64,000 nt of DNA. It comes from Klebsiella phage KPN8. The notes beneath the pieces were generated by a model, which did no database searches, was not told the DNA's origin, and was given only the letters and a program-made list of their open reading frames with translations. The stretch is taken from sequence record OP079919.1. One strand, given 5' to 3'. Position numbers and translations under genes: made by a program. The stretch's first letter is position 1, and the number at the start of each line of letters is the position of its first letter. Of the stretch, positions 6,760 through 60,320 are shown piece by piece.

Positions 6760-6808
6760 ATACTCCTACTCCCTTATCGGGAGTAGGAGTATAAACCTTA
6801 TTATTTTT
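6760..6808 (+). terminator. intrinsic terminator, palindromic family member 1 (ATACTCCTACTCCC-TTATC-GGGAGTAGGAGTAT + T-run)
   Basis: 14-bp perfect stem then T-rich tract. Confidence 0.75.
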
Positions 6809-6889
6809 TACTTGTATTTATTTATAGATCTTTATTATCAAAGCGTAAACTAAAACAACCGTTAACTTTATATGGTTGGTTTTTCCTAA

Positions 6890-6919
6890 CCGAGGAAATG
6901 GAAGTCCTCGGTCTTTTTT
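6890..6919 (+). terminator. second tandem terminator hairpin (CCGAGGA-loop-TCCTCGG + TCTTTTTT)
   Basis: 7-bp stem followed by T6. Confidence 0.6.
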
Positions 6920-6951
6920 AATACGGAATACAAATTTAGGAAATCAAGATC

Positions 6952-7368
6952 ATGAAAAATATCTTTATCGCCCTCTCTCTGTTCGTTTTCTCTTTCTCCG
7001 CACTAGCTGAAGATTTTGTCTGTAAGACAGAAGCCTATGTCGCCGATCCGAAAGGAACCGATCCGGCAGTAATAACTCACGGCGTTTACAGTTTTGATTA
7101 TAATCGCGCTACCGACGTTTTAACCAAAATCGATGGTAAGAAAGATGACTTCGCAGTCCCTACCTTTGCGGTAGGTAAGGACGACAAAGGCATCACCGTC
7201 CGCGTGGGGTATAAAGGCAAAATGGTATATTGGTTTGGGTTTAACGGCCGGGCTATCGATTCCGTCATTCTGGCGGAACATAAAACCATGATAACCCGAG
7301 ATTCTTTTAAAGGGGATACCATGGCGAAAACTGTTTATTTGAAAATGTACAGCGACTGTTCTTATTAA
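6952..7368 (+). CDS. secreted protein with signal peptide (138 aa)
   Basis: N-terminal MKNIFIALSLFVFSFSALA-ED; TTTAGGAAATCAAGATC-ATG. Confidence 0.7.
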   Translation: MKNIFIALSLFVFSFSALAEDFVCKTEAYVADPKGTDPAVITHGVYSFDYNRATDVLTKIDGKKDDFAVPTFAVGKDDKGITVRVGYKGKMVYWFGFNGRAIDSVILAEHKTMITRDSFKGDTMAKTVYLKMYSDCSY

Positions 7369-7377
7369 GGGACGACG

Positions 7378-12344: not shown

Positions 12345-12365
12345 TCGTCATCTACACATCTTCAA

Positions 12366-12392
12366 TAGGGGGAGATACTCCCCCTATTTTTT
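12366..12392 (+). terminator. intrinsic terminator (TAGGGGGAG-ata-CTCCCCCTA + T6)
   Basis: 9-bp GC stem followed by TTTTTT. Confidence 0.75.
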
Positions 12393-16465: not shown

Positions 16466-16918
16466 ATGGCTAACGAATTCAACATTAACGGTAAAAGTAT
16501 CAATGTGCCTTCAGGCGCGTCCATCAGTTTCTCCAATGGCGAACTGTTAATTAACGGCAAACCTCCTTCAGAGATTGAGCCTGGTCAGAACATCACAGTT
16601 AATATCATTGTGCAGGGTTCTGCTACGAAAATCGATATCGGATCAGGGACCGTTACTGTCAATGGATCGGCCGGGGAAATAAAAACAGCATCCGGCGATG
16701 TTAACGTGCAAGGTAATTGTGAAGGTCAGATAACCACCGCATCGGGTGATGTGGATGTTGGCCAAGAAGCAAGAAACGGAATAAAAACTGCTTCTGGTAA
16801 CGTGACGGCAAAGACTATAAAGGGGAACGTTGAAACTTCTTCCGGAGATATTCAAGCTGATCAGATCGTCGGTAATGTTAAAACGACTTTCGGTACGATA
16901 AAACCCCCTCATGGATAA
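16466..16918 (+). CDS. bactofilin-like beta-helical repeat protein
   Basis: repeats GSGTVTVNGSAGEI / KTASGDVNVQGN / TTASGDVDVGQE / KTASGNVTAKTIKGNVETSSGDI; TTTAGGGAATATC-ATG. Confidence 0.55.
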   Translation: MANEFNINGKSINVPSGASISFSNGELLINGKPPSEIEPGQNITVNIIVQGSATKIDIGSGTVTVNGSAGEIKTASGDVNVQGNCEGQITTASGDVDVGQEARNGIKTASGNVTAKTIKGNVETSSGDIQADQIVGNVKTTFGTIKPPHG

Positions 16919-16922: not shown

Positions 16923-16976
16923 TATATACTCCTACGGCTTAATCGCCGTAGGAGTATATTTAAACGGTTATTTTTA
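16923..16976 (+). terminator. intrinsic terminator, palindromic family member 2 (TATACTCCTACGGC-ttaatc-GCCGTAGGAGTATA + T-rich)
   Basis: 14-bp stem, then TTTAAACGGTTATTTTT. Confidence 0.7.
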
Positions 16977-19919: not shown

Positions 19920-20185
19920 AATCGGAAATCATCGTTACCAGAACGTTCGCTCAGTTAAAAGAACTTCGGATAATGATCAGCCGTAAATTGGTTAAGTCGG
20001 CTTCTTTGGTTGAAACCACAGAGGGGTGGTCGGTAGAGTTCAAAACTGAATACGGAGATAGAGTATTCTCTTCGTCAAAGAATGCGTACTATCCAAAGAC
20101 CTTTAAAGGTTTTGCAGCACCCATCAAAATGTTGAGAAAGATGGGATTTGACGAAGTAAAGATGGTATTTCTAAAGGCCAAATGA
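19916..20185 (+). CDS. hypothetical protein (89 aa)
   Basis: ATGA overlap. Confidence 0.5.
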   Translation: MKSEIIVTRTFAQLKELRIMISRKLVKSASLVETTEGWSVEFKTEYGDRVFSSSKNAYYPKTFKGFAAPIKMLRKMGFDEVKMVFLKAK

Positions 20186-20206
20186 TATTAATTTAGGGGA
20201 AATCAA

Positions 20207-20518
20207 ATGAAATTATTTCTGGTCCGTTCGCCCGATAATGCGGGGGAATATGAAAGATGGCGAGAGCTGGTTGTTGTTGCTAGAGATGAAAAGGAAGCAA
20301 AAGACATAACGTTCCCGCATCCCGATTTCGTTTCTGGGACTTCAGTATTTGGACAGGTTCCTACCGGTGATAACCATGGTTCGCTATCAGGGCTTCCTTA
20401 TGGAGAAAAAGGCCGTGGGTATTGGTACCCTAACCGTGATAACCTCCAGGTTATCTGTTTGGGGGAAACGTCTCTTACAGAACCTGGAGCTATATCAGGG
20501 TTTTTCTACCACGCGTAA
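20207..20518 (+). CDS. hypothetical protein (103 aa)
   Basis: TTTAGGGGAAATCAA-ATG. Confidence 0.55.
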   Translation: MKLFLVRSPDNAGEYERWRELVVVARDEKEAKDITFPHPDFVSGTSVFGQVPTGDNHGSLSGLPYGEKGRGYWYPNRDNLQVICLGETSLTEPGAISGFFYHA

Positions 20519-20541
20519 TAAACATCTTTAGGGGAAATATC

Positions 20542-20763
20542 GTGAGACCAATACTTTTAGTCGAAAGAGATCTTACGCCAATCAAAAATGCGGGGGTTGA
20601 GATCGTCATGCCCAAGTTTAGAGTGGTTGGGATTGAGGAGTTAGGCGTCGTCCGATTGGATTCTCCTCAGGGGAAGAAAACGGATATGGATGAGATGTTT
20701 ATCCCGGTCTCTCTAGACATAAATGGGATTTGTGCTTCTTTTGTGATGGCTTTGGGAAATTGA
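20542..20763 (+). CDS. hypothetical protein (73 aa, GTG start), paralog family with 20800
   Basis: TTTAGGGGAAATATC-GTG; N-terminus LLVERDLTP..VVGIEELG similar to next gene. Confidence 0.5.
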   Translation: MRPILLVERDLTPIKNAGVEIVMPKFRVVGIEELGVVRLDSPQGKKTDMDEMFIPVSLDINGICASFVMALGN

Positions 20764-20799
20764 TACAACATGTCTGATGCCGTGATTTGAGGTGGTCTC

Positions 20800-21132
20800 A
20801 TGAAAATAATGGTTTTAGTTGAAAAAGATCTTACCCCGAATGAAATTATGGAATCCAATATTCCGGGACTAAGATTTGAGATAGTAGGGCCAAATCGATT
20901 AGGCGACAGTCTATTTGATTTCCCCCAGAGAAAAGCTCTGGGTGGGGATAAGGATGTCGTTTTGGTATCTCAGGAAATACCCGAGATTATAACAACCAGA
21001 CTTTTCTTTATTGAATGTGGTGAATTTGCTAAGATAATAGGACGCACCCCATTTCGCCTAATAGAGGCGAAAATAAAGAAATACATCGTCGATAACTTAC
21101 ATCGCGCCATTTTAATTACCGAGGGTCAATGA
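20800..21132 (+). CDS. hypothetical protein (110 aa), paralog of 20542
   Basis: MVLVEKDLTP...FEIVGPNRLG. Confidence 0.55.
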   Translation: MKIMVLVEKDLTPNEIMESNIPGLRFEIVGPNRLGDSLFDFPQRKALGGDKDVVLVSQEIPEIITTRLFFIECGEFAKIIGRTPFRLIEAKIKKYIVDNLHRAILITEGQ

Positions 21133-21133
21133 A

Positions 21134-21460
21134 ATGAAAGTAACGATTCAAGTACTCGAAGACAGAGAAGTCGATATCATCGAGGCTCTAGAAAAGTGTT
21201 TGTTCATCCCCCATTTCTATTTCGTACATCGGGGGCGCGATAAACGAGAATTCTTAGGGGAGGACGACGATTCCATTTTGATCATCTCACAGGAGTTGGT
21301 TGATTGTTGTCCTGAACTGGTCGTATTGGAATGCGGGGATTTGGAAAAACTGTGTTTCTCCCAACGACGCGCCAAAACCGAAAAAGAGGTTATTATCGAA
21401 TACCTCAAAGCCAATCGAGAAAAGATTATCAAAGTCACTGACTTGCCGGGGTACTATTAA
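21134..21460 (+). CDS. hypothetical protein (108 aa, acidic)
   Basis: GAGGG 8 nt before ATG. Confidence 0.55.
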   Translation: MKVTIQVLEDREVDIIEALEKCLFIPHFYFVHRGRDKREFLGEDDDSILIISQELVDCCPELVVLECGDLEKLCFSQRRAKTEKEVIIEYLKANREKIIKVTDLPGYY

Positions 21461-21993
21461 TGACCGCTCGTTATTTTGCCGGTGATTTCCATTTAGGAGA
21501 CCCCTCTATTATCAAATACCGTAAGCAGTTTAAAACGGTAAAGGAGCACGATGAATTTATCGCTGATACGATTTTGGTTAAACCTCGTGATCACGACATA
21601 CTAACGATCGTGGGTGACGGATTCATTAAACCAGAATCGTTGTTCATTCTGAAGAAGTTCCCGTATAAGAAACATCTTATCCCAGGGAATCACTGTATGG
21701 AGAAAGGCGTTAAAGTTACTGATCTCGCTGCTTTCTTCGACGTTGTTACCGGATCGTTTAAATGGAAGAGTGGGTTCTTCGTATCCCATGAACCTCAACA
21801 TCCTGATCATCTCCGAGGTCGCATCAATATTCATGCTCATTTGCATGATAAAGTGATTGAAGACGAACGTTATATCGGGGTGTCGTTAGAACAAACCGGT
21901 TATCGTTTAATCCATCACGATGAGATCTTATCTGGTTCTTATCGTACTTATCGAGCGCCAAGATTAGAAGATCATCTTCACGTAGGAAAATAA
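21460..21993 (+). CDS. calcineurin-like metallophosphoesterase, paralog 1
   Basis: GDFHLG...GDGF...GNHC...HAHLH motifs; TAATG coupling. Confidence 0.7.
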   Translation: MTARYFAGDFHLGDPSIIKYRKQFKTVKEHDEFIADTILVKPRDHDILTIVGDGFIKPESLFILKKFPYKKHLIPGNHCMEKGVKVTDLAAFFDVVTGSFKWKSGFFVSHEPQHPDHLRGRINIHAHLHDKVIEDERYIGVSLEQTGYRLIHHDEILSGSYRTYRAPRLEDHLHVGK

Positions 21994-21995
21994 TT

Positions 21996-22256
21996 ATGGA
22001 TCTAGATAACGATATTGTTAGTAAAGAGCATCCCAAACCGATGAGTATAAGCACAGTGTATGGTGATGAGAAAGAAATAGCCTCTCGTGTGTGCGTCATC
22101 GACGCCTGCGTTAATTTCAGCAGGGCTATTGAAGAAGCATGGTTGAAATTACAAAAACCAGAAAAGGTAACAAAAGTCGATTTGAGCTTCGTTATGGAAG
22201 ATGGAAATACATGTGACATAACCGTGGTTAAAAAGATAGAAGATGAAGTATTGTAA
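21996..22256 (+). CDS. hypothetical protein (86 aa)
   Basis: AGGAAAATAATT-ATG. Confidence 0.5.
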   Translation: MDLDNDIVSKEHPKPMSISTVYGDEKEIASRVCVIDACVNFSRAIEEAWLKLQKPEKVTKVDLSFVMEDGNTCDITVVKKIEDEVL

Positions 22257-22332
22257 ATCTTTACGAAGCTAAGCGAGATAAAGAACTTAAGGCAACGTTG
22301 AAGAAAATTGTTCCCATTAGTAAGGTGTAAAG

Positions 22333-22677
22333 ATGAATCCATTTAACATTTATTTTTCTGCTTCTCCCCTGGGGTCCGCTATAGGGTTAGCGATCTTGCT
22401 AGTCCTTGGGTGGTTTTTTATTTACCGCAGCCCTACGGTGATTAACCAAGTTATCGGTAAACAGAAACGCGTCTACGTTGTTTTGTTCGTCCTGGTATTT
22501 TTTATCGGGAGTTGTTTTAATATAGGTACTCGGCAAGCTGAGCTTAATCGTTCTCAGTTCGACACCCAGATGAACACTGAGATCATCAAGAAATCACCTA
22601 CCTCCACGGAAGTCTTCGATGCCCGTGGTAACTTTAATCAAGCGTTAGATAAAGCAAAAAAGGAAAATGAACAATGA
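22333..22677 (+). CDS. membrane protein (114 aa, 2 TM), possible partner of SPFH protein
   Basis: two hydrophobic helices; ATGA overlap with SPFH gene. Confidence 0.55.
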   Translation: MNPFNIYFSASPLGSAIGLAILLVLGWFFIYRSPTVINQVIGKQKRVYVVLFVLVFFIGSCFNIGTRQAELNRSQFDTQMNTEIIKKSPTSTEVFDARGNFNQALDKAKKENEQ

Positions 22678-23540
22678 AGAAACTTTTCTCAATTGTGGGA
22701 TTAGTGATGATTGCAACTTTACTCTCTGGATGCGGTCAGATTGTAGAACCTGGTTTTAAAGCCAAGTTCCTTTCTTCCAGCGGTTACAGTAACGAGATCA
22801 AGGAGCCGGGTAAATATCAAGTTTGGTGGGGCGAGAAGTTGATTAAACTTGATACCTCGACCAAAGCGATATCCATTCCTCTCACTGTTAAGATGGCGGA
22901 TGAAATGGATTTATCCTTTAGCGTTAACTTCCGTACCCGAGTCGGGGGTAACGATAAAGTCCTGAACGCCATGTTTAACGACATTCGACCTCAGGATACC
23001 GATAAGGGTCTGATCATCTCCTTAGATCAGGTATTCTCGGTTTACGGTAATGACGTAGTGAGTAACGTTGCTCGTTCCGTAGTGGGGAAATACAAAGTCA
23101 GTGAGGTCTCTAAAAACTACGACACGATCAACGAGCAACTTCAGGCTAAGTTAATCGAAGCGATGAAGAACAACCCGCTGGAAGTGTCCAACGTGACCGT
23201 CGCTAACATTACCTGGCCTAAAGTCATTACTGACGCCATCGAAAAGCAACAAGAACGTGAACTGGCAATCAAGACAGAAGAAAACCAGCAAGCGATAGAA
23301 ATGGTTAAACGCACTAACCAGCTCAAACTCGCCGAAGCTGACCGAGAGATCGAACTCACTCGAGCGAGAACCCTGCGAGATCAGAATGCCATTACCGCCG
23401 ATGGCTTAAGCGATAAACTCATCGCTTATAAAGCGTTAGAGGTTCAACAATCCATGACAGATAACAAGTCGGCGGTGTTTGTCCCTTATGAAGCGTTCAA
23501 TGCACCCGGATTGTCCAACCGCATCTTTAGTGCCAAATAA
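22674..23540 (+). CDS. SPFH/band-7 (HflC/prohibitin-like) lipoprotein
   Basis: lipobox LLSGC; band-7 core plus EQQERELAIKTEENQQAIEM coiled-coil; 288 aa. Confidence 0.65.
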   Translation: MKKLFSIVGLVMIATLLSGCGQIVEPGFKAKFLSSSGYSNEIKEPGKYQVWWGEKLIKLDTSTKAISIPLTVKMADEMDLSFSVNFRTRVGGNDKVLNAMFNDIRPQDTDKGLIISLDQVFSVYGNDVVSNVARSVVGKYKVSEVSKNYDTINEQLQAKLIEAMKNNPLEVSNVTVANITWPKVITDAIEKQQERELAIKTEENQQAIEMVKRTNQLKLAEADREIELTRARTLRDQNAITADGLSDKLIAYKALEVQQSMTDNKSAVFVPYEAFNAPGLSNRIFSAK

Positions 23541-23550
23541 TTAACAATTA

Positions 23551-23590
23551 ATCTGGTTGGGCTCATCCAACCAGATTACCTTTACTTTAG
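23551..23590 (+). terminator. intrinsic terminator-like hairpin (ATCTGGTTGG-gctcat-CCAACCAGAT)
   Basis: 10-bp stem; moderate T content after. Confidence 0.5.
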
Positions 23591-23603
23591 GAAAAAAAAT
23601 ATC

Positions 23604-24167
23604 ATGATCAATTGCTTGAGTGCCAATGAGTCAGAATTGTTTAAAAAGCAATGGAACGAATACGTAGAGGAAGGGCTTCCCGGACTCGATGAAAGAATGA
23701 AGGGCCCGATGCTGATCCTGAACGCAATACCTGGGGTAACGACCCGATTTTGTTGTTCCGGTCATACCTTTGAAGAAAGGCTATCATCTCACCCGACCAA
23801 AGTTTATTCTCGAGTACAGAAAAGGAATTTCATTTTTGTTGTTGAGGTGGCGCACCCAACCATTTTTTCAGTATTTGATAAGTTCTTTAAATCTTTAGAT
23901 GAGGACGAGTTTATTTTCTGCCGACCTTCTCTAGAGACCACTCTGCTTAAGAAAAACTTTGGTGGTCGTGAAGTATATCCGGTTTGGGTATTCGAAATGA
24001 ACTGGGTTTACGAACTTACCGAGGAGGAAAAAACAAAAGGGAGAGACGAGGTTCAAAAAGAACTGTGGGAGAGACTCCTCAGAGAACTTTTCCTTATTAC
24101 CTCCCCTGAAATTCGCAACGAATATTATTCCAGGTCGGTTTTTACTCATCCCCATCAACCTAGCTAA
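23604..24167 (+). CDS. hypothetical protein (187 aa), upstream of nadR
   Basis: TTTACTTTAGGAAAAAAAATATC-ATG. Confidence 0.65.
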   Translation: MINCLSANESELFKKQWNEYVEEGLPGLDERMKGPMLILNAIPGVTTRFCCSGHTFEERLSSHPTKVYSRVQKRNFIFVVEVAHPTIFSVFDKFFKSLDEDEFIFCRPSLETTLLKKNFGGREVYPVWVFEMNWVYELTEEEKTKGRDEVQKELWERLLRELFLITSPEIRNEYYSRSVFTHPHQPS

Positions 24168-24181
24168 CTAGGGACTTTATC

Positions 24182-25291
24182 ATGTTTGATATCGGCATCG
24201 TCGTTGGTAAATTCGCCCCGCTCACTCAGGGTCATATCAACCTTATCACCCAAGCCTCCCTCCAGGCTAAGAAAGTTATCGTTGTGTTAAGTCACGACAG
24301 TCGCTGGTTAGCGCAACAATGTCCTCGTGATCAGAAGGCGTTGACGTTCACCAACCGTCTTCGTTGGTTACAGCAGCATTACGCCGATTCTGACCATATT
24401 GATATTAAATATATCATCGAAGATGACATCCCGGAATTCCCCAACGGATGGAGCGCTTACTGTAACCTCCTCAGGAAGATCTACACTGAGGAACAGCACA
24501 AGAAATATAAAGGAATCGGATCAGTCGACAACACTCGTCGGATTGCTCAGACCGTAGCCATTTTCAGTAGCGAAATCGATTACGATAAAGGCTACGAGGA
24601 GCATCTTCCTGAAGTCAGTCACGTCGTCGTTGACGCGCATCGTACGGCGGTTCCAATTAGCGCGACTAAAATTCGTGAGAATCTTTACGCCAACTGGGAA
24701 TACCTCCCTTCTATTGTTCGTAAGGACTACACCAAACGGATTGTCATCCTCGGTCAGGAATCTTGCGGTAAAAGTGTCATGGTCAAGAATCTGGCTAAGA
24801 TGTTTAATACGTCCTGGGTAGAGGAGTACGGTCGGACGTATTGTGAAACAGAGCTCTGTGGTTCAGAATCGACACTCCGTAGCGATGATTATCCTATTAT
24901 CGCTTATCGCCATAAGGAGCTGGAAATCCAGGCCATGCGCTCAGCCAATCGTATCTGCATCGTGGATACGAACGCGTTCATTACTGAATACTACCATCGG
25001 TTGTATGAAGGAAAACCTAACCGGATCGTTTCCGCAATTGCTGCTGAGGAAAACTACGATTTAGTTATCGTACTCAAGCCTACAGTGCCGTGGGTCGACG
25101 ACGGCCTTCGTAGTAATCCCGAAAGACAACGCACGACTGAACTATTTAATCTCATGTGTCTGGAGTTCCCTAATCAGCTCCCGGGAGGAAGAACGTTCTA
25201 TATTTCTTCCCCTGATTACAAAGTTAGGTTCGATCAGGCTTACGAGATTATCAAAACCTTTACCCAGCGTGTTAACTCAGGTGAATTTTAA
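24182..25291 (+). CDS. nadR: bifunctional NMN adenylyltransferase / ribosylnicotinamide kinase (NadR-like, no HTH domain)
   Basis: N-terminal GIVVGKFAPLTQGHINLI (GxFxPxHxGH NMNAT motif); C-terminal ILGQESCGKSVMVKNLA Walker A of RNK domain; 369 aa. Confidence 0.85.
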   Translation: MFDIGIVVGKFAPLTQGHINLITQASLQAKKVIVVLSHDSRWLAQQCPRDQKALTFTNRLRWLQQHYADSDHIDIKYIIEDDIPEFPNGWSAYCNLLRKIYTEEQHKKYKGIGSVDNTRRIAQTVAIFSSEIDYDKGYEEHLPEVSHVVVDAHRTAVPISATKIRENLYANWEYLPSIVRKDYTKRIVILGQESCGKSVMVKNLAKMFNTSWVEEYGRTYCETELCGSESTLRSDDYPIIAYRHKELEIQAMRSANRICIVDTNAFITEYYHRLYEGKPNRIVSAIAAEENYDLVIVLKPTVPWVDDGLRSNPERQRTTELFNLMCLEFPNQLPGGRTFYISSPDYKVRFDQAYEIIKTFTQRVNSGEF

Positions 25292-25987
25292 ATGAAAGAA
25301 CTTTTTAGCGTAATCTATACTGATTTCCAGAGCGGATGGAGTCGTAAGGAATGGCTGTGGTTAGTCGTAGCCGTCTCGGCTGTTGTAGTTGGGAGTATCT
25401 CCGCTTCGCCACTGGAATTCTGGGCGGGTATATTCAACGTCGTCTGCGTTATTCTTGTTGCTAAAGGTCGACTCTCCAATTACTATTGGGGACTATTAGG
25501 GGTGGTTCTCTACGCGATCGTTTCCTACAAGCAACAACTCTACGGCAACATGGCGCTTAACGTCATTTACTTTGGATTCCAATTCTGGGGTATTTACGAA
25601 TGGCGTAAAACATTGCTGAATAAGACTGATGCTGGCGTTGACGTATCCGTTAAAAGACTGTCACTTCTCCAGTTCCTTCAGATGACGTTCGTTGTTTTGG
25701 CGGGGACCTTTGCAGTCAGTTTGTTCCTTCGTCATATCGGGGATAGCTCACCTGTATTAGATGCGTTTACGATGGTAGCGAGCTTAATCGCTATGGGCTT
25801 GATGGTTAAACAGTATTCCGAACAATGGTTACTCTGGATACTGGTCGATATCGCTTCTATTTACATGTGGGTCATTCCTGCTTTAGACCAACCTGGTTCT
25901 TGGTCCATGGTAGCGATGTGGACGGTCATCACCGGTAACGCGCTGTACGGCGCTTACATGTGGTTTATTGTTAAGATAAATAAATAA
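25292..25987 (+). CDS. pnuC: nicotinamide riboside transporter PnuC
   Basis: 231-aa polytopic membrane protein; EQWLLWILVDIASIYMW matches PnuC ENWLLWVIINVISV; adjacent to nadR. Confidence 0.85.
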   Translation: MKELFSVIYTDFQSGWSRKEWLWLVVAVSAVVVGSISASPLEFWAGIFNVVCVILVAKGRLSNYYWGLLGVVLYAIVSYKQQLYGNMALNVIYFGFQFWGIYEWRKTLLNKTDAGVDVSVKRLSLLQFLQMTFVVLAGTFAVSLFLRHIGDSSPVLDAFTMVASLIAMGLMVKQYSEQWLLWILVDIASIYMWVIPALDQPGSWSMVAMWTVITGNALYGAYMWFIVKINK

Positions 25988-26012
25988 TTCCGATAATAGA
26001 GGATAAAATATC

Positions 26013-27329: not shown

Positions 27330-27336
27330 GTCATTC

Positions 27337-40902: not shown

Positions 40903-40948
40903 TTACTGGAGTGGGGATGACCCCACTCCAGTAAGTTATTTTTTTTTT
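40903..40948 (+). terminator. strong intrinsic terminator (TTACTGGAGTGGGG-atga-CCCCACTCCAGTAA + T10)
   Basis: 14-bp perfect stem, T-run. Confidence 0.85.
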
Positions 40949-40964
40949 CATATTATTTTAAAAC

Positions 40965-40972
40965 TATATTAC
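40965..40972 (+). promoter_or_regulatory. TATATTAC box, candidate phage promoter
   Basis: exact 8-mer 43 nt upstream of ATG 41016, directly after terminator. Confidence 0.35.
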
Positions 40973-41015
40973 CTAAACGTATAGACAACTTCTTTTATTT
41001 AACTGGAGTAGTAAA

Positions 41016-46462: not shown

Positions 46463-46518
46463 AAAACTTTATCCTACCTGGGAATCCCAGGTAGGATAAA
46501 TAAAGTTTATCTTTTTTG
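46463..46518. terminator. bidirectional terminator between convergent genes (ATCCTACCTGGG-aat-CCCAGGTAGGAT, T-rich both sides)
   Basis: 12-bp perfect stem with extended imperfect arms. Confidence 0.8.
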
Positions 46519-46887
46519 GATGACGTTGCCCTCAGCTTTACGTTTGGTAAAATGAGAGGATCCGCAGAGTCGGACGAATACCCACATTACAAGCCAGTAG
46601 CGCCAGCTGAGTTTTAAACGATAACGCATATTGTCTCGGAAGAGATTGTCACACTCTTTCCTTTCGTATAACCCGGAACCGTACATGTAATCGTGCACAG
46701 CTGCAGCCGGGAAATATTTATAGTAAGCTGGGTATAAACCCTGTAGCCAACGAGGAACACTCGCCCCGTCCGTTACCAAGCCTTTAGGGACGGTGACCTC
46801 TGGGGTCGGGTAATCTTCTCTGAACCGAAATTTATCCTCGGTTATAACGTAGTCAAGCGGGATGTCGGTAAAACTAAATTCTTCCAT
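46507..46887 (-). CDS. DUF1353-like protein
   Basis: GLVTDGASVPRW...AAAVHDYMYG motif typical of DUF1353; only short minus-strand gene in region. Confidence 0.55.
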   Translation of the reverse strand: MEEFSFTDIPLDYVITEDKFRFREDYPTPEVTVPKGLVTDGASVPRWLQGLYPAYYKYFPAAAVHDYMYGSGLYERKECDNLFRDNMRYRLKLSWRYWLVMWVFVRLCGSSHFTKRKAEGNVIQKR

Positions 46888-46963
46888 TTCGCTATTCTCT
46901 GAATTAGTTAGTAATAAACGATCATAGCATTTTAGACTTTCGACACATAGAAGTTTTCAGTTC

Positions 46964-46971
46964 TATATTAC
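46964..46971 (+). promoter_or_regulatory. TATATTAC box, candidate phage promoter
   Basis: exact 8-mer 39 nt upstream of ATG 47010 in divergent intergenic region. Confidence 0.35.
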
Positions 46972-47009
46972 CGTTATGTAAACACAACCTATCATTTAGG
47001 AAAGCCATC

Positions 47010-48340: not shown

Positions 48341-48366
48341 GGGGGCCTTCGGGCCCTCCTTTTTTA
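48341..48366 (+). terminator. terminator-like hairpin (GGGCC-ttcg-GGCCC + TCCTTTTTT)
   Basis: GC stem then T6. Confidence 0.5.
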
Positions 48367-49287: not shown

Positions 49288-49332
49288 GTGGGAGTCCGCA
49301 AGGGCTCCCACGCTATTTATTAATTTATTTTT
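49288..49332 (+). terminator. intrinsic terminator (TGGGAGTCC-gcaa-GGGCTCCCA + T-rich)
   Basis: 9-bp stem (1 mismatch), TTTATTAATTTATTTTTT. Confidence 0.6.
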
Positions 49333-50433: not shown

Positions 50434-52011
50434 GTGAACGTTCGTGGCGTAAAAGTAAAAGCAGAAACCCGTCAAATTATTGATAACACCGTAGAGCTCG
50501 TTGCAACCGCGGTAACCTCGACCATGGGCCCTAACGGCAAGCTGGTTGTTATTGACGAAACGGGTAATCCTAAAATGACCAAGGATGGGGTGACTGTAGC
50601 GCGCTCTATCCGTTTGGATGATCGGGCAATGGACATCATCGCCAAGATGATCACCGAAGCCTCGATCAAAACGGATGCCGAATGTGGCGATGGGACCACC
50701 ACCACCGTATTCTTAACAAGAGCGTTTTATAACGCCTTTAAAGATAAACTGGATTTCATGACCAAACGCCGGGTGGAAGAGTTAACGAAAGAAACGATCG
50801 AAATGCTCAAAGGAATGACGAAGGTTATTTCTCTTGATAGCCCAGTCCTTCACAATCTGGCGTTAACAACCAGTAATAACGATCTGGATATCGTGAATAA
50901 GCTCTACGATATCTTTAAGACCATACCCGATCCCATGATTGATTATCGTCGGGGTGTAACAGGTATTGACGAGATCGAATACAGTAAGGGCAAGGAATTC
51001 ACAGGCGGGTACGCGCACCCTACTTTCACTAAAGATGGAAGTGGAAGCCCGATTACGATCGAATCGGGTTATGCGTGCATCTTTGAAGGGAAGTTCAGTA
51101 TTCCAGATGACGAGTCGGAATTCCTGAGGCTCTTCGATGAGATCACTAAAAGGGGATATCGTCAGACTATCGTTATCGCACGTGAATTCGACGAACACAC
51201 CCTGATGGTGATGAACAAAATGAATCACGTTATGCTGAAGCAGAAACTGGCGGAGGAACCCGTTTTCATTCCTGTGCGGGTTCAGGCTATCGGAACAGCG
51301 GGAGTGGGGATCATTGGAGATATTGCAACCGTACTGGGGTTAAGTCCTGATGTGGACTATTTAGGTTGGAAGTCTCGTGACTATGAGGTACACTGTATTG
51401 AAAACATTACGGTAAAGGGCGCGGCATTCTTCGTGGGTAGTGTATCTGATGAAGTCTCGGAACGCACAGTAAAGCGCATCGGGCAAATTAAAGATCAAAT
51501 CGATAACTTGCCAGCTGCTCAGAAACACACGCCTTTGGCGAAGATCCTGAGACACCGTATCTCTACTCTGATGGGTAACCGAGTGACTGTAACCGTTGGA
51601 GGAGAAACCGCTTCCGACATCAAAGAACGACTGGATCGATTTGAAGACGTCGGTCGGGCTATCGCATCAGCGTTAACTAACGGCGTCCTTCCGGGCATTG
51701 GTTATTCATTGGCTTATGTTGGTAGTGAGCTGGTGAAGAAATATCCTGACGATTCTATAGTGAAACTGTACGCCGATGTATTGGGCGAGCAGCTTCACAT
51801 GTTGATGGGTCGGGAATTCAATGATCCTGAATTAGTCTATGTCAATCTGGCTACTGGGGAAACCGGTAAGCATCCTCAAGACATCAACGTCTGGGATGCG
51901 CAGTTAGCCACAGTCACTGCGTTAAGGGCTGGTGTCAGCACTGCTATCTCTTTGGCGAGCACCGATACGTTAATTATCGGTAGTCGTGCAGGTGGTGCGG
52001 ATATTCCCTGA
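50434..52011 (+). CDS. GroEL-like chaperonin (Cpn60/TCP-1 family), GTG start
   Basis: MGPNGKLVVIDETGNPKMTKDGVTVARSI...AECGDGTTTTVFL matches GroEL GPKGRNVVL..TKDGVSVAREI..AGDGTTTATVL; 525 aa; no adjacent GroES. Confidence 0.85.
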   Translation: MNVRGVKVKAETRQIIDNTVELVATAVTSTMGPNGKLVVIDETGNPKMTKDGVTVARSIRLDDRAMDIIAKMITEASIKTDAECGDGTTTTVFLTRAFYNAFKDKLDFMTKRRVEELTKETIEMLKGMTKVISLDSPVLHNLALTTSNNDLDIVNKLYDIFKTIPDPMIDYRRGVTGIDEIEYSKGKEFTGGYAHPTFTKDGSGSPITIESGYACIFEGKFSIPDDESEFLRLFDEITKRGYRQTIVIAREFDEHTLMVMNKMNHVMLKQKLAEEPVFIPVRVQAIGTAGVGIIGDIATVLGLSPDVDYLGWKSRDYEVHCIENITVKGAAFFVGSVSDEVSERTVKRIGQIKDQIDNLPAAQKHTPLAKILRHRISTLMGNRVTVTVGGETASDIKERLDRFEDVGRAIASALTNGVLPGIGYSLAYVGSELVKKYPDDSIVKLYADVLGEQLHMLMGREFNDPELVYVNLATGETGKHPQDINVWDAQLATVTALRAGVSTAISLASTDTLIIGSRAGGADIP

Positions 52012-52053: not shown

Positions 52054-52311
52054 ATGGACGTTAACACTTCGTCAATTAAAAATTCTAATAATAGACAACA
52101 TAATAATTACAGCGATTCATCCTCCGCTCCGATTCAGTTGGATCGTTCGGGGGAAATTGTCGACGCCAGAACTAAGCTAACAGTTACTGGTGAAATTCCT
52201 CTTCGAAAGTTACCCACTTTCTCAAACCCACCGCAAAGAACAATAAGAGACGATAAAAAACCTTCATCACTCTGGGGGATGGTTAGAGCTCTGTTCTTTG
52301 TATTCATGTGA
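52054..52311 (+). CDS. small polar Asn/Ser-rich protein (85 aa), uncertain
   Basis: ORF between two hairpins; low complexity. Confidence 0.3.
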   Translation: MDVNTSSIKNSNNRQHNNYSDSSSAPIQLDRSGEIVDARTKLTVTGEIPLRKLPTFSNPPQRTIRDDKKPSSLWGMVRALFFVFM

Positions 52312-52318
52312 TACTATT

Positions 52319-52365
52319 CCTCTACCCACGTGGGTAGAGGAATAATAACGCTTTTTTATTTTTTA
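52319..52365 (+). terminator. terminator hairpin (CCTCTACCCAC-GTGGGTAGAGG) with downstream T-run
   Basis: 11-bp perfect stem; T6/T6 runs 11 nt downstream. Confidence 0.55.
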
Positions 52366-52443
52366 AGGTTATCTCACTCATGGCTAAAATCTATTTCTAT
52401 TACTCCTCTATTGTATAGTAGAAACTCTTATGGGGAAATAGAA

Positions 52444-53412
52444 ATGTCGAAAATTAGTGGTTACAAAGAACATCCGGTAATAAAAAACCTTTTCATCCAT
52501 CCTACGGAAGATAATCACGTCCTGTATGTTAGGAAGAAAAAAGTATCTCGGATAAAGACCCATGTCGGTAAACGCGGATACGTTATTTTTACCATGTGGT
52601 TAAATGGGAAATCCAAGGGTTTTCGCTTCCACAAATTGAAAGCCGAAACGTATCTCAAGAAACCCAGTTCAGACCGCACCCTAGTCGTAAATCATAAGGA
52701 CCATGTTAAGATCAATAACGATCTCGATAACCTAGAATGGGGGACTCAGAAAGAGAATGTCGATCATTCATTAAATATCCGTCAAAAGCTTTGTCCTCTC
52801 TATCGGATAATGGATTTAACTACGGGGAGATGGTGTACAGCCGGTAGTCGTAAAGGGGTAATCGAAATGCTAGCTTGTACCCAACGACAACTCTCTAACC
52901 ATATTAAAGACCCTCGCTATCCATTGCTATTCAAGTGGGAAGTAACAAGGGGTTTTACTTGGAATCTTTCAAAAGATGACGTGGGTAAATATAACCCACG
53001 AGAGCTTCTTCCTTATGTGGTAGAAAAGAATGGCGTCGTTTTTTACCTGGCGACATTAGCTGAAGTTGGTGAATTGACAAAGATCACTAAATACAATATT
53101 ACAGTTGCTTTGAAAAATCAACCAATTCTGCATGCCAAGGGATTCAGCATTCGGTTTATTAATTCTTATGAAGAGTGGATGAAGACTGTTATTGGGAAGT
53201 CCTATATCGATACCATGTTAAATAAAAGTAATAGAAATAAAAAACGGATCGAGGTAATAAACACTCTTACGGAGGAGAAAACCACGTTAAACGGAATTAT
53301 GGAATTAATGGAACTGACTAATTATTCACGACCTACCATCGACAGGGCAATGAAAAATATGTGTGAAGATGGGTGGGTGACTTTCAAAAATCTAAAGATA
53401 AGGTTTATTTAA
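52444..53412 (+). CDS. HNH homing endonuclease (HNH_3 type with NUMOD-like N-terminus)
   Basis: VVNHKDHVKINNDLDNLEWGTQKENVDH; start moved to ATG 52444 (MSKISGYKEHPVI). Confidence 0.8.
   Translation: MSKISGYKEHPVIKNLFIHPTEDNHVLYVRKKKVSRIKTHVGKRGYVIFTMWLNGKSKGFRFHKLKAETYLKKPSSDRTLVVNHKDHVKINNDLDNLEWGTQKENVDHSLNIRQKLCPLYRIMDLTTGRWCTAGSRKGVIEMLACTQRQLSNHIKDPRYPLLFKWEVTRGFTWNLSKDDVGKYNPRELLPYVVEKNGVVFYLATLAEVGELTKITKYNITVALKNQPILHAKGFSIRFINSYEEWMKTVIGKSYIDTMLNKSNRNKKRIEVINTLTEEKTTLNGIMELMELTNYSRPTIDRAMKNMCEDGWVTFKNLKIRFI
52444..53412 (+). mobile_element. free-standing homing endonuclease gene inserted immediately upstream of tdk
   Basis: HNH HEG abutting tdk with TAATG overlap. Confidence 0.55.
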
Positions 53413-55098: not shown

Positions 55099-55150
55099 AC
55101 CTACTCCTACGTCCTTAACGGGGCGTAGGAGTAGTTCGTTAATTATAACT
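55099..55150 (+). terminator. intrinsic terminator, palindromic family member 5 (CTACTCCTACG...CGTAGGAGTAG)
   Basis: 11-bp stem, T-rich tail. Confidence 0.65.
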
Positions 55151-56847: not shown

Positions 56848-56850
56848 TAA

Positions 56851-56895
56851 TAACTCCTACTCCCGATAAGGGAGTAGGAGTTATTAACTTTTTTG
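56851..56895. terminator. bidirectional terminator, palindromic family member 6 (TAACTCCTACTCCC-GATAA-GGGAGTAGGAGTTA)
   Basis: identical to 27337 element; between convergent genes. Confidence 0.75.
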
Positions 56896-56898
56896 TTT

Positions 56899-58947
56899 TT
56901 AGAACAAATCTAAAACTGAAGATGTGGATTTAGGAAGCGGCATAGTAGGTAATTCGAAATCCATTAACTCCAATGCCTCTTCCCCACCGATAGCCCTCAA
57001 TGAAGGATTATTCAGTGTACTCTGAGATAACAGCTCTTCAACGTTGTCCCTCGACCACTGTAGAATATCGATGGACCGGGTCATGATGTTAAGTTCTTTA
57101 CCGGTATCCAGCTCGATCATCCAGAAGAAGCAAGGTTTATCCTGACCTTGTCTGAAGATACGCGCCTTGGTTTGTTTCAGCTCGTAATCCCTCCAAGGGG
57201 CATCCATGAGGATCTCCTGGTTAGCTACGACCATGTGCGCCGATTCCCTCAAAGATCTGAAGGTGGTGACTGCTGGGTTCAAATCAGGTTCCGTATCAAA
57301 CCGTTTGATTAGAATGTCTTTAGACTGATCGGCATCACCGTAAATCAATAGCGGTTTAAACCCTTCCTTGTTAAGCACACTATAGACTTCATTCAGCACA
57401 TCCACATAAGACGTAAAGATCAGTGTTTTCTTCTCTACGTTGTTTATCATGGATGGAAGTCCTGCATGCGCAACAACTGCCCTTACGGCTTCTATACGGG
57501 CCTTACCCAACACATTACCTAAAGCCTCCCCTCTTATCTTCAAGCCAACGTACTTAACGGCCGATTTGATATTGCGGAACTGTTTCAGCTGCTCTCCACG
57601 TAATCGAGCTTCAATGTCGATTTCGACGTTCTTAGCGTACTGGGAATCAGCTGAGTCAGTAAAGTTGTTATAACCGTGAGTTCTGAACCGATTCACGATC
57701 TGTTTGTATTTAACCAGTTCACCCAGCTTACCGTTGTCATCTTTAACGTAGCTTTCGTAATCGTCTAAAACGTGATTAAAGAAAGCCAAAAAAATCGGCA
57801 TGTTTTGTTCGTAGAACTTGACTCGGTTCTGTATGTAAGAAAGCATTTCGAGTCTAATGGCTTTCAACGTGAATCGTTCGCCATTAGGAACGGTAACCGG
57901 AACCATTTCTACCGGTGGCTCCTCACCCATATCAAAGAGAGAATCAATGACGTAACGTGTTCTACCCAACCGATGGGCCAGAAGGGTGTTAAGTTTATCC
58001 CTGGATAGCCCGTAAGACTTCATGAAACGCTCTCTGGCGTTTCCTTTAAAGAAAGGATCTATCAGTGCAAAGATTGAATACGCTTCCCTTGCCATGGCTT
58101 TTAGAGGGGTTCCTGACATAGGAAGAGAATCATTGAAGGGATAATGGTCAGCGGCTTTAATGATATTCTGGGTTTGTTTAGAACTCAGCTCGTTAAAGTT
58201 GTGGGACTCATCAACAACGAGTGACACTCCGCCTTTACCAGCCGCCTCGAAAACCTGATCGAGAATCTTAAAGAAATCAGGGTTTCTTGTATAATCAATG
58301 TGAATAAGGAAGTATTCGCAAGAAGGATCAAACGGTTTATTTTGACGGGTACTCCAATACTTAGGAGGGTCAACAAAAACCTTTTCCTCCATGTGCAACT
58401 TCCAGACGGTATTGATTCCTGCGTCTGGGCAAATGATGATATGTTTTTTATTACCCGTTAATCTTGTCCACATCAAGCTAGTGTAGGTTTTTCCACTACC
58501 TGCCTTGGCGTCCAGCAAAAGCCCTTTAAGGTGGTGTGATTTCTTAACCATCTTGTAAGTGGATATAAAACCCCATTGAGTATCATAAGGTTTTATTTTA
58601 AACTGTTTTAAAAAAGAAGCTTTGTCTATCGGATAAGCTGTAGGGGTAACGGTATCCTTTATCCAGGTATCCGTTCTGAGTTTTATTTGGAGTTCGTTAA
58701 GGCTCTTGCGACTACTCCAAGTATTTCTTGACTGGAGGATCTTTGTTATTAGATGATCCAACTCCAATAAGAAAAAGTTATCCGTAACGAACTTATTGGA
58801 CCCAACACGTCTGAACATATAACGACCTGGCGTGCTTGTACCATACGCGGTCTGTATGTCGTCATTAAAGTTACGGAAGTTAACATGATTGATTTCCGTA
58901 ATAGTCGGTCCTTGTTTAACATCAGGCCCAAAGATATAGTTTAACAT
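56899..58947 (-). CDS. SF2 (SNF2/DExH-like) helicase
   Basis: motif I AKAGSGKT, II VVDESHNF, III LPMSGTP, VI QTKARIFRQGQ; ATG 58947 preferred over TTG 58953. Confidence 0.8.
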   Translation of the reverse strand: MLNYIFGPDVKQGPTITEINHVNFRNFNDDIQTAYGTSTPGRYMFRRVGSNKFVTDNFFLLELDHLITKILQSRNTWSSRKSLNELQIKLRTDTWIKDTVTPTAYPIDKASFLKQFKIKPYDTQWGFISTYKMVKKSHHLKGLLLDAKAGSGKTYTSLMWTRLTGNKKHIIICPDAGINTVWKLHMEEKVFVDPPKYWSTRQNKPFDPSCEYFLIHIDYTRNPDFFKILDQVFEAAGKGGVSLVVDESHNFNELSSKQTQNIIKAADHYPFNDSLPMSGTPLKAMAREAYSIFALIDPFFKGNARERFMKSYGLSRDKLNTLLAHRLGRTRYVIDSLFDMGEEPPVEMVPVTVPNGERFTLKAIRLEMLSYIQNRVKFYEQNMPIFLAFFNHVLDDYESYVKDDNGKLGELVKYKQIVNRFRTHGYNNFTDSADSQYAKNVEIDIEARLRGEQLKQFRNIKSAVKYVGLKIRGEALGNVLGKARIEAVRAVVAHAGLPSMINNVEKKTLIFTSYVDVLNEVYSVLNKEGFKPLLIYGDADQSKDILIKRFDTEPDLNPAVTTFRSLRESAHMVVANQEILMDAPWRDYELKQTKARIFRQGQDKPCFFWMIELDTGKELNIMTRSIDILQWSRDNVEELLSQSTLNNPSLRAIGGEEALELMDFELPTMPLPKSTSSVLDLF

Positions 58948-58977
58948 CACCAATCACCCGTTATTAGGAGTAGTAAA

Positions 58978-60255
58978 ATGAATTCTGTCGACATCAACAC
59001 CTATAAGAAGTTCTTCTCTGCTGTTGCCGCTGAACTGTTCAGTAATCTGGAAGATCTCAAAATCGTTTCCCATCGTCACGCGCTGTTAAATATTCTGTTT
59101 ATCGACGGGATCAAAATCAGTACGGGTGAACGTCGCCGCTATGCCTTCCACGAAAAGCATCTGAAGGCGGTCAAAGAACGCATTAACCTGGGCGACTTCT
59201 CTTTCCTCGATGAGCAGGTTCGGGATAAAGATTTCCAGCCGCGACAGTATAAAGGCGTCGAAATCGATCACGCTTACGGCTATGTGGTCAGCGCGGTCCC
59301 GGTCTTCACTTCCATGGAACAGCGCGGCACCGGCGATAAGGAATTCGACAACATGACCACCGGCCAACTGGCACGTGTTGATCAGTGGTTCACCGACTAC
59401 GCTAAGAAAGAAACCGACCAGCTGAAAACCATCGCCGATCTTACCGAAGCCTGGGGTAAATTCACCACGACGGTCAAGGATCACGATCTCTACTTCGGAT
59501 TCGACATCGAAGATCATAAAATCAGTCTGACCCTGGATAAAGCGCCTCCTATCGCTGATGAGATCAAGATCCTTCGTCAGCCGGTTACCCTGGAACAGCT
59601 CGCTGAGTTCTCTGAAGATGACCAGAAACACATCGCCGGTGTTCAGGCTGCCATCGACAAGATGAACGAACTCACTTCAGGGTTCTTCGGCATCGAGCTG
59701 GGTAACAAATACCTCACCCAATTCCGTGAGCGTATTTGGGAGCAGAACTTCTCCATGCCGCTTCAATATCAGACCAACATCGTCTATGAGTTCACCGATA
59801 ACACGCCTGAAACTCGTGCCCTCGTAGAGGAACAAGTCGAAAAGGTTATCAGTCTGCTGAAAGATAAAGAAGCCGAGCTGGGTAATCGTGTCTATCTCGA
59901 CACTAACTCGCTGGCGACCTTCGTTGTTAACGAAGAAGGTGCTAACGAATACTACGACTACCCTGTGGTCCGTGAGATGTGGTCGAAGTTCGTTCGCTCG
60001 TTCGGTAAAGCGATCCTCAACCTGATGAACCAGACCGAATCGGTTTACTTCAAACCCTACATCTCTAAGGTAACCAAAGTGGAAACCGAAGAAACTCCTG
60101 CTGTTCGTAAACGTGGTGAAAACCCGCACCTGGTCGCAGTTGATGAATCGCCTTTTGTAGATGGCGATGCAGAAGTGGTAGTTGAAGACGATTCCGCCCA
60201 GGATGAAACCTATGCGCTCGAAGGCGACGCTCAGGCTCCTAGTCAAAACGTTTAA
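58978..60255 (+). CDS. hypothetical protein (425 aa, acidic C-terminus), GC3-rich probable abundant protein
   Basis: GGAGTAGTAAA-ATG; host-like codons; terminator after. Confidence 0.7.
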   Translation: MNSVDINTYKKFFSAVAAELFSNLEDLKIVSHRHALLNILFIDGIKISTGERRRYAFHEKHLKAVKERINLGDFSFLDEQVRDKDFQPRQYKGVEIDHAYGYVVSAVPVFTSMEQRGTGDKEFDNMTTGQLARVDQWFTDYAKKETDQLKTIADLTEAWGKFTTTVKDHDLYFGFDIEDHKISLTLDKAPPIADEIKILRQPVTLEQLAEFSEDDQKHIAGVQAAIDKMNELTSGFFGIELGNKYLTQFRERIWEQNFSMPLQYQTNIVYEFTDNTPETRALVEEQVEKVISLLKDKEAELGNRVYLDTNSLATFVVNEEGANEYYDYPVVREMWSKFVRSFGKAILNLMNQTESVYFKPYISKVTKVETEETPAVRKRGENPHLVAVDESPFVDGDAEVVVEDDSAQDETYALEGDAQAPSQNV

Positions 60256-60274
60256 TCGATAACGCAAAGAAACT

Positions 60275-60320
60275 ATTCCTCCTACCCGTAAGGGTAGGAG
60301 GAATATATTTCTGTTATTTT
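60275..60320. terminator. bidirectional terminator, palindromic family member 7 (ATTCCTCCTACCC-gtaa-GGGTAGGAGGAAT + T10)
   Basis: 13-bp stem; convergent genes. Confidence 0.8.

Follow-up and report, generated by a model that had tools for sequence, protein, structure and literature searches.

Along the 64,000-nucleotide (nt) stretch of Klebsiella phage KPN8 DNA that we analyzed (sequence record OP079919.1; hereafter, the window), palindromic hairpins built on the stem CTCCTAC..GTAGGAG recur just past the stop codons of genes. This family of hairpins, which we read as probable transcription terminators, is the subject of the present analysis. A gapped pattern search detected six exact CTCCTAC-N(3-25)-GTAGGAG hairpins in the window (6763-6789, 16929-16954, 27340-27366, 55104-55131, 56854-56880 and 60279-60300), compared to 0.00 expected from 100 dinucleotide shuffles. 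The longer arm GGGAGTAGGAG, with at most one mismatch, occurred eight times where 0.66 occurrences were expected, and a census counted 21 perfect hairpins with a stem of 9 bp or more in the window versus 0-2 in shuffled sequence.

The hairpin family in the window

An earlier inspection of the same DNA, the original prediction, had listed seven near-identical copies, here numbered c1 to c7 along the window. Six of them are the exact hairpins; the remaining one, c4, has its arms in the opposite order and does not belong with the others. The motif scan for further copies that the prediction had proposed was productive, with two additional relatives in the window (46468-46500 and 52315-52344) and many more in the related Klebsiella phage Miami. 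As had been claimed, the hairpins directly follow stop codons: all start 1-19 nt past a stop.

Outside the three sites at 46468, 56848 and 60274, all copies are situated between co-directional + strand genes. Copy c1 (6758-6794, + strand), with the sequence TTATACTCCTACTCCC-ttatc-GGGAGTAGGAGTATAA and a 16-bp stem (-27.5 kcal/mol, z score -7.7), starts 2 nt past the stop of the + strand gene 5881-6756. Copy c2 (16924-16959, + strand; ATATACTCCTACGGC-ttaatc-GCCGTAGGAGTATAT; 15-bp stem; -25.5 kcal/mol, z score -6.3) starts 6 nt past the stop of the gene 16466-16918, and c3 (27337-27369, + strand; TAACTCCTACTCCC-gataa-GGGAGTAGGAGTTA; 14-bp stem) starts 8 nt past the stop of the gene 26814-27329. 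Copy c5 (55099-55136, + strand; ACCTACTCCTACGTCC-ttaac-GGGGCGTAGGAGTAGTT; -28.4 kcal/mol, z score -5.6) follows the double stop TAATAA of a + strand gene ending at about 55096. All four have co-directional neighbors.

The other two exact copies separate convergent genes. Copy c6 (56848-56886; TAATAACTCCTACTCCC-gataa-GGGAGTAGGAGTTATTA; 17-bp stem), at about -28 to -29 kcal/mol on both strands and with T-rich tails on both, lies between a + strand gene ending at 56847 and a RapA-like helicase gene (56899-58953, - strand) ending at 56899. Copy c7 (60274-60305; TATTCCTCCTACCC-gtaa-GGGTAGGAGGAATA; 14-bp stem), at about -29 kcal/mol on both strands, lies between the genes 58978-60255 (+) and 60325-60984 (-). 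A third convergent site is occupied by the relative at 46468-46500 (ATCCTACCTGGG-AAT-CCCAGGTAGGAT, i.e., TTTATCCTACCTGGG-aat-CCCAGGTAGGATAAA; 15-bp stem; z scores -7.2 and -7.7 on the two strands), between a + strand gene ending at 46448 and a - strand gene (46507-46887) ending at 46507. Three convergent pairs had been claimed originally; among the seven copies listed then only c6 and c7 qualify, and the third site belongs to the unlisted copy.

The second additional relative is a near-variant at 52315-52344 (+ strand; TTCCTCTACCC-ACGT-GGGTAGAGGAA, i.e., TATTCCTCTACCC-acgt-GGGTAGAGGAATA), in which CTCTAC replaces CTCCTAC; it starts 4 nt past the stop of the gene 52054-52311. Copy c4 (31344-31373, + strand; GTAGGAGGGGG-gttt-CCTCCTCCTAC; -25.2 kcal/mol, z score -3.1) is an inside-out relative with the purine arm first. 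It has the 7-mers of the family in reversed order, hence a different architecture from the main family, starts 12 nt past the stop of the gene 31051-31332, and is followed by TCCC and a T-run. Directly 3' of it, at 31363-31373, we observed an exact unpaired CTCCTACTCCC. This is the main-family 5' arm, to which no 3' partner corresponds downstream; possibly a family hairpin once stood here and left it behind.

RNA folding of the six exact copies and of the 46468-46500 copy gave -25 to -29 kcal/mol with z scores of -5.6 to -7.7, and the copies at convergent sites folded equally strongly on either strand. The 5' arms are 60-86% pyrimidine. The gap between the conserved half-sites ranges from 8 to 14 nt, i.e., it varies by 6 nt. 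Copies c3 and c6 are identical over 36 nt, longer than the 33 nt given initially. The inverted loop noted in c1 is real, since c1 is the exact reverse complement of c3 over 29 nt; given that c3 is palindromic, only the loop is flipped.

Downstream of the 3' arm, c3 and c6 continue with GGAGTTATTA, c1 and c2 with GGAGTATA, c5 with GGAGTAGTT and c7 with GGAGGAATATAT. The expectation that T-runs usually follow the copies was borne out in part: T-rich tracts occur within about 20 nt downstream at six of the seven listed sites, but they are mostly separated from the stem. A scan of the window with the rho-independent terminator consensus picked up only c1, c2, c6 and the 46468 copy; at the copies outside this list T-rich sequence lies 5-20 nt away, and c3 has none nearby. 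Searches of the whole window on both strands against Rfam 15 gave no match at the gathering score, and a tRNA scan found no tRNA.

Besides the family, we noted a second class of terminator-like hairpins in the window (12364-12388, 33836-33855, 40903-40934, 48341-48358 and 49288-49311). They have a purine- or G-rich arm first and a T-run mostly 0-3 nt after the stem, the classical design, and none contains CCTAC.

A candidate phage-specific promoter motif, CTWTATTAYC-N5-GTAAAC, was also observed on the + strand of the window at 6830-6839, 27394-27403, 40964-40973 and 46963-46972, with a looser copy at 18577; in Miami it occurs at 38451, 73749, 213026 and 243918. Each copy occupies an intergenic position on the + strand, 46-52 nt ahead of a start codon. 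The four window copies compare to 0.78 expected (2 of 100 shuffles reach four), and three of them are 30-60 nt downstream of a terminator hairpin. We take the motif to resemble the AT-rich early promoter of phiKZ.

Counterparts in Miami and other jumbo phages

Klebsiella phage Miami (253 kb, genus Miamivirus) shares about 95% identity with the region 20000-32000 of the window; for BUCTxx100, YC1, phiKp_32 and the Raoultella phage VB_ZK_P1 (ZKP1) the identity is 87-95%. Among the products of Miami are several split RNA polymerase beta subunits, a tubulin-like protein and an internal head protein similar to that of phiKZ, and its proteins find their best matches in EL, OBP, RisingSun/Joad, pTD1/VP4B and PCH45; in pTD1, a relative, a nuclear shell protein is annotated. 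Genes for a GroEL-like chaperonin and a RapA-like helicase, both typical of the phiKZ-related group, are present in the window, with the RNA polymerase genes located outside it. Judged from these sequences, the source phage is a phiKZ-related jumbo phage. Phages of this group transcribe with their own polymerases (PMC10914365, PMC11512511). NadR-like and PnuC-like NAD salvage genes accompany the chaperonin gene in the window (24182-25987 and 50434-52011), in agreement with the annotation of Miami.

The Miami genome, pieced together from seven parts for a census, allowed the family to be counted at the scale of a whole genome. Its GenBank record carries 48 'terminator' features, 19 of which contain CCTAC..GTAGG, including orthologs of the window copies. 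An annotation-independent census found 50 perfect hairpins with a stem of at least 11 bp. Among these 50, the 5' arm contained TAC in 34, CTAC in 28, CCTAC in 21, CTCCTAC in 16 and ACTCCTAC in 11, and alignment on CCTAC yielded the consensus (T/A)A-C-T-CCTAC-(C/T)CC, with the top of the stem and the loop variable. TTAT(T/G) was seen within about 12 nt of the 3' arm at most Miami copies (as a resemblance to the phiKZ motif, this was noted with no formal alignment). The polarity of the arms is biased: the pyrimidine-first order CCTAC..GTAGG occurs 31 times in Miami compared to 3.9 expected, and the purine-first order 6 times compared to 3.8 expected. A family hairpin is present at about 12 of 28 convergent junctions versus 8 of 227 co-directional ones (odds ratio 20.5, p = 2e-8). 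Miami also has a second, smaller class of hairpins, purine-first and with a T-run directly after the stem.

We then compared orthologous junctions in Miami, VB_ZK_P1 and phiKp_32 that were chosen by the homology of their flanks, the hairpin itself not being used. Wherever both flanks were conserved, the hairpin was present in every genome compared; hence, there are no empty versus filled sites. The near-variant at 52315-52344 is identical across all four genomes compared, and c4 has a counterpart at the corresponding site of Miami, VB_ZK_P1 and phiKp_32.

The changes that did occur tend to keep the stem paired. At the c1 junction of VB_ZK_P1, with flanks only 74-78% identical, ACTCCTAC/GTAGGAGT is kept while the upper stem has changed. 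In c6 of Miami one base pair is gone symmetrically from both arms, a compensatory change. At an orthologous junction of Vibrio phage phiKT1019 and Miami, where the flanking proteins are 23% and 52% identical, the hairpins read ATAACTCCTACTCCC-gataa-GGGAGTAGGAGTTAT and ATAACTACCGTCTCCC-aaa-GGGAGACGGTAGTTAT, respectively. These three cases indicate that pairing is under selection.

All three G.U wobbles (in c4, c5 and the hairpin at 18555) occur in the transcribed strand; A.C mismatches were not encountered. The G.U pair of c4 on the + strand of the window is an A-U pair in VB_ZK_P1. In c5, the transcribed + strand forms a U.G wobble in the window, VB_ZK_P1 and phiKp_32, where Miami has a perfect G-C pair. 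Small as this sample is, the pattern points to pairing at the RNA level.

The loops behave differently from the arms. Among genomes 87-95% identical, six of the eight family sites (c1, c2, c3, c6, c7 and 46468) show an inverted loop between orthologs with the arms intact. The loop of c1 is TTATC in the window and GATAA in Miami; that of c2 is TTAATC in the window and in phiKp_32 and GATTAA in Miami; that of c7 is GTAA in the window and TTAC in Miami and phiKp_32. The c3 loop is inverted in VB_ZK_P1 and phiKp_32, the c6 loop in VB_ZK_P1, and the 46468 copy of Miami combines an inverted loop with a 1-nt indel. Loop orientation is therefore not constrained, which explains the 'inverted loop' of c1. 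The inversions show that the arms interact at the DNA level, and point to frequent template switching or arm-to-arm recombination.

Beyond the genus, a BLAST search of the 34-nt element against 50,697 phage records matched 42 of them, all jumbo phages of 197-285 kb. The matches include Miami-like phages, the Vibrio phages phiKT1019, pTD1 and PDCC-1, Aeromonas phages, the Erwinia phages RisingSun, Joad, ChrisDB and phiEaH2, as well as OBP, RSF1 and others. In phiKT1019 the c3-type 34-mer was matched at 34 of 34 positions, and no Miami copy of this sequence occupies the orthologous site. The c7-type 38-mer, searched against the same records, matched 35, of which 34 are jumbo phages of 222-320 kb; Goslar, RSL2/RSF1 and Burkholderia phage FLC6 are among them. 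RisingSun matched over 36 nt at 92% identity, while the matches in Goslar, RSL2/RSF1 and others were shorter.

The original prediction had proposed comparing copy numbers across related phages. In arbitrary 50-kb pieces, CCTAC..GTAGG occurred 7 times in pTD1 (0.74 expected), 4 times in RisingSun (0.99 expected) and 3 times in OBP (0.72 expected); in 40 kb of phiKZ it occurred 0 times (0.29 expected). The stem base is thus enriched across genera where the flanking proteins compared share only 23-52% identity, which supports, more strongly than could be seen from the window, the initial remark that the element is more conserved than independent terminators need to be. In IMG/VR, patterns of the form ACTCCTAC..GTAGGAGT specify 14-16 bases, for which many chance matches are estimated, so that matches are informative only in combination with the test for Miami homologs in the flanks; among the matches listed, 44 of 101 loci encode such homologs, and many are on contigs of 190-350 kb. 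A search for the exact 29-mer, with the loop either way round, gave 0 matches in one genome per species of 185,579 bacterial and archaeal species.

Probable termination and the alternatives

By analogy with mapped terminators of phiKZ-related phages, the hairpins are probably the standard factor-independent transcription terminators of a phiKZ-related jumbo lineage. The terminator function proposed at the outset fits the position past stop codons, the strength of the hairpins, the enrichment at convergent junctions, the annotation of Miami and the phiKZ-like design. The lineage would comprise Miami-like Klebsiella phages, Erwinia phage RisingSun, Vibrio phages pTD1 and phiKT1019, Pseudomonas phage OBP, Ralstonia phage RSF1 and E. 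coli phage Goslar. In the proposed plan, the element opens with an A/T-rich clamp (TAA or TATA), continues with the pyrimidine-rich 5' arm (A)CTCCTAC, a G+C-rich top, a loop of 3-6 nt and the purine-rich 3' arm GTAGGAG(T), and closes with T(T)AT or a T-rich stretch. Since the palindrome is the same on both strands, a polymerase arriving from either side would produce the same nascent-RNA hairpin of -25 to -29 kcal/mol, making bidirectional termination possible. One element could then end transcription from both directions and also close co-directional units, which would explain both the preference for convergent junctions and the presence of copies between co-directional genes.

The stem base is kept across genera and at non-orthologous sites, for which selection on pairing alone is insufficient; nor is gene conversion within one genome sufficient for the same stem base to appear in distant genera. 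Some sequence-specific constraint on the stem base is therefore likely. Under the terminator reading, the base would most likely be fixed as the sequence best suited to the transcription or RNA machinery of the lineage itself.

Several points weigh against termination. We infer RNA 3' ends at the hairpins by analogy. In many cases 5-20 nt separate the stem from the T-rich tract, and at c3 there is no tract nearby; under E. coli rules several copies would be weak terminators. The asymmetry of the flanks (T downstream versus A upstream) is small in co-directional contexts and too weak to serve as a test of direction. The phiKZ consensus is not matched, and given the count of 0 for CCTAC..GTAGG in 40 kb of phiKZ, the link to the mapped phiKZ motif is one of design, not identity. 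Hairpins for 3'-end stability or processing would give the same sequence picture.

A different account of the fixed stem base, raised in the original prediction as a protein- or RNase-recognised site and regarded by us as rather unlikely, is that ACUCCUAC/GUAGGAGU is the recognition site of a conserved phage-encoded factor, so that the hairpin doubles as a terminator or needs the factor to be one. Candidate readers are the phage multisubunit RNA polymerase, a termination or anti-termination cofactor, a protein that protects or processes 3' ends, an RNase, or an mRNA-handling protein of nucleus-forming phages. Sequence beyond what pairing needs is indeed kept across genera with different hosts and flanking proteins of 23-52% identity, and the 34-nt identity at a non-orthologous site in phiKT1019 and the polarity bias (31 pyrimidine-first versus 6 purine-first) agree with recognition. 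A half-site gap of 8 to 14 nt would also suit the reading of a folded stem base better than a double-stranded DNA operator of fixed spacing. However, no candidate binding protein was identified, and about half of the strong hairpins of the genome lack the motif, some being canonical purine-first terminators with T-runs. Loop orientation is clearly unconstrained. Moreover, the consensus terminators of 201phi2-1 that were assayed work in the host without infection (PMC11512511), so that a related design needs no phage factor. In its broadest form, this account would make ACUCCUAC/GUAGGAGU a lineage-wide, sequence-specific signal for the conserved machinery of the EL/OBP/RisingSun/pTD1/Miami/Goslar branch of nucleus-forming phages, a proposal we put forward with considerable doubt. 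The reader would then be the non-canonical RNA polymerases, with a termination code unlike the phiKZ GCCCUCCC, or a hairpin-binding protein that would decide termination, 3'-end stability or mRNA export from the phage nucleus.

We consider it improbable that the repeats are recombination cassettes resembling the promoter-early stem-loops (PeSLs), i.e., short homologies by which gene modules are shuffled, inserted and deleted, with the similarity of copies kept by recombination or gene conversion. The setting is suggestive: there are many small genes, mosaicism is extreme, stretches of up to 36 nt are identical between copies at different sites, and a promoter-like motif of phage type follows c1 and c3. 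About half of the window junctions (55 of 109) are ends of alignment blocks, i.e., synteny breakpoints, in at least one of Miami, VB_ZK_P1 and phiKp_32, and many small genes differ by replacement, insertion or deletion. Certain breakpoints coincide exactly with hairpins (6801, 16925, 46448 and 56904). Still, breakpoints were found at 8 of 14 hairpin junctions versus 47 of 95 others (Fisher p = 0.78, a crude estimate from the ends of BLAST segments). Beside c6, phiKp_32 has an insert of about 1.4 kb (positions 751-2134 of the phiKp_32 piece L232) that contains a gene of about 1.25 kb between the c6 ortholog and the helicase gene; this gene has at its 3' end a different hairpin of its own, ATAACTACCGGGA-gatt-TCCCGGTAGTTAT, and not a second copy of the family. 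None of the hairpins has a sigma-70-type promoter beside it. Promoter-like hits across the window numbered 30, 36 and 25 compared to shuffle means of 36.0, 37.3 and 36.8, and none lay next to the hairpins on their downstream side. Finally, the phage is not of T4 type, and gene conversion within one genome cannot give the same sequence in distant genera. T4-type PeSLs had been our initial guess, from the NadR/PnuC genes and a match to a Vibrio phage (KVP40-like); it was dropped on the evidence of the Miami annotation, the promoters and the breakpoints.

It is very improbable that the palindromes act as DNA, as cruciforms or as operators for replication, recombination or packaging, with their position at gene ends secondary. 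They are perfect DNA palindromes, the loop inversions at six of eight family sites imply that arms interact through template switching or recombination, and the lineage encodes SbcC/SbcD-like palindrome nucleases. Against a role in DNA stand the strictly post-stop placement, the 20-fold enrichment at convergent junctions, G.U wobbles confined to the transcribed strand, and phiKZ counterparts that coincide with mapped RNA 3' ends (PMC10914365). An operator of fixed spacing was rejected, as the half-site gap varies by 6 nt.

The remaining idea, raised in the original prediction as a dispersed repeat, is that of mobile palindromes (REP- or MITE-like), or of target or end structures of a transposase or homing endonuclease (IS200/IS605-type TnpA/TnpB, HNH), spreading within and between phages. 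Although near-identical copies do occur at non-orthologous sites and in different genera, a TnpB gene is present in phiKp_32 and a 'putative transposase' in Miami, and an HNH endonuclease gene absent from Miami abuts the hairpin 52315-52344, we rejected this idea as scarcely credible: no junction with both flanks conserved lacks the hairpin, breakpoints are not enriched, sites are confined to positions just past stop codons, the elements are only 27-39 nt long and have no target-site duplications, the Miami hairpins near the transposase gene have another sequence, and the 185,579 representative genomes contain no exact copy in either loop orientation. Sequestration of a Shine-Dalgarno sequence by AGGAG in the 3' arm was rejected too, the next start codon being 13-158 nt away.

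As to the mobile genes themselves, the IS200/IS605-family TnpB gene is located at 4644-5780 of the phiKp_32 piece L231, and the Miami 'putative transposase' at 238508-239644; the hairpins nearby do not belong to the CCTAC family. The start of the HNH endonuclease gene (52330-53412) falls within the 3' arm of the hairpin 52315-52344, and the lack of this gene at the Miami site accounts for a 1-kb gap in the alignment. In VB_ZK_P1 and phiKp_32 a gene of about 970 nt follows this hairpin. The site is probably a homing endonuclease insertion polymorphism.

Comparison with known systems

The closest known counterparts are the terminators of phiKZ and 201phi2-1. In phiKZ, ONT-cappable-seq mapped 133 termination regions, and 61 mapped terminators, coinciding with RNA 3' ends, share the consensus BCCYCCCCHWWDGGGRRGGBYTTATKYYGT (PMC10914365). 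Of the 132 terminators of 201phi2-1, 59 carry a similar motif; eight 201phi2-1 terminators were assayed and stopped transcription in vivo, in the uninfected host (PMC11512511). Our scan of 40 kb of phiKZ recovered hairpins of the form cataaGCCCTCCC-loop-GGGAGGGCattatg with palindromic ATAA/TTAT flanks, the pyrimidine arm preceding the purine arm.

Features that the window family has in common with these terminators are the setting, a phiKZ-related jumbo phage that makes its own RNA polymerases, the reuse of a single dominant hairpin sequence behind many genes, arms rich in pyrimidines on the 5' side and in purines on the 3' side (…CTCCC / GGGAG…), and some bidirectional sites between convergent genes; the ATAA/TTAT flanks appear to be similar as well. 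The sequences differ. The stem of the window family is ACTCCTAC(Y)CC, compared to GCCCTCCC in phiKZ, and its stems are 11-17 bp long, compared to 8-10 bp in phiKZ, with palindromes that are perfect including the flanks. The published phiKZ consensus is not matched by the window stems, given their TAC/GTA and greater length, and the phiKZ hairpins scanned (GCCCTCCC/GGGAGGGC) have no CCTAC. Unlike those of phiKZ and 201phi2-1, the window motif spans several genera with different hosts.

PeSLs are the repeated stem-loop terminators of T4-type phages (PMC2839356, PMC4122927), with stems of the types GN-loop-CN, A3-4G3-loop-C3T3-4 and AGNA-loop-TCNT (PMC4122927), which differ from the window family. 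The likeness consists of near-identical stem-loop terminators among small genes in plastic regions, some copies being followed by a promoter-like motif. The differences are a phage that is not of T4 type, a unit without a sigma-70-like promoter, and the lack of breakpoint enrichment at the hairpins.

Bidirectional rho-independent terminators of bacteria are symmetric hairpins between convergent genes, A-rich on one side and T-rich on the other, which have a common structure without a common stem sequence. In the window family, by contrast, one stem base is shared by many sites and by several phage genera, and the T tract frequently lies at a distance from the stem. The loop flips have a parallel in the hairpin-associated minute inversions of chloroplast non-coding DNA, in which, as reportedly described by Kelchner and Wendel in 1996, loops flip between close genomes with the arms intact. 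Here the system is a phage, the hairpins are read as terminators, and the flips are seen among genomes 87-95% identical.

In the literature searched by motif letters and for jumbo-phage terminator motifs, we found no description of ACTCCTAC hairpins, and one paper containing GTAGGAG (on phage JG004) was irrelevant to hairpins. The kind of hairpin is thus already known, and the ACTCCTAC form is a sequence variant for which that literature gave no description. If its sequence is merely that of a preferred stable stem, the finding is an ordinary one. Nevertheless, termination by phiKZ-like multisubunit RNA polymerases has barely been studied, having been mapped so far only in phiKZ and 201phi2-1, with one shared consensus. 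Another large branch, with Klebsiella, Erwinia, Vibrio, Pseudomonas, Ralstonia and E. coli hosts, appears to use a different, equally stereotyped hairpin. The hairpins could serve as marks for annotating transcription units and as compact bidirectional terminator parts, and the two 'terminator dialects' would make a concrete pair for probing sequence-specific termination by these polymerases.

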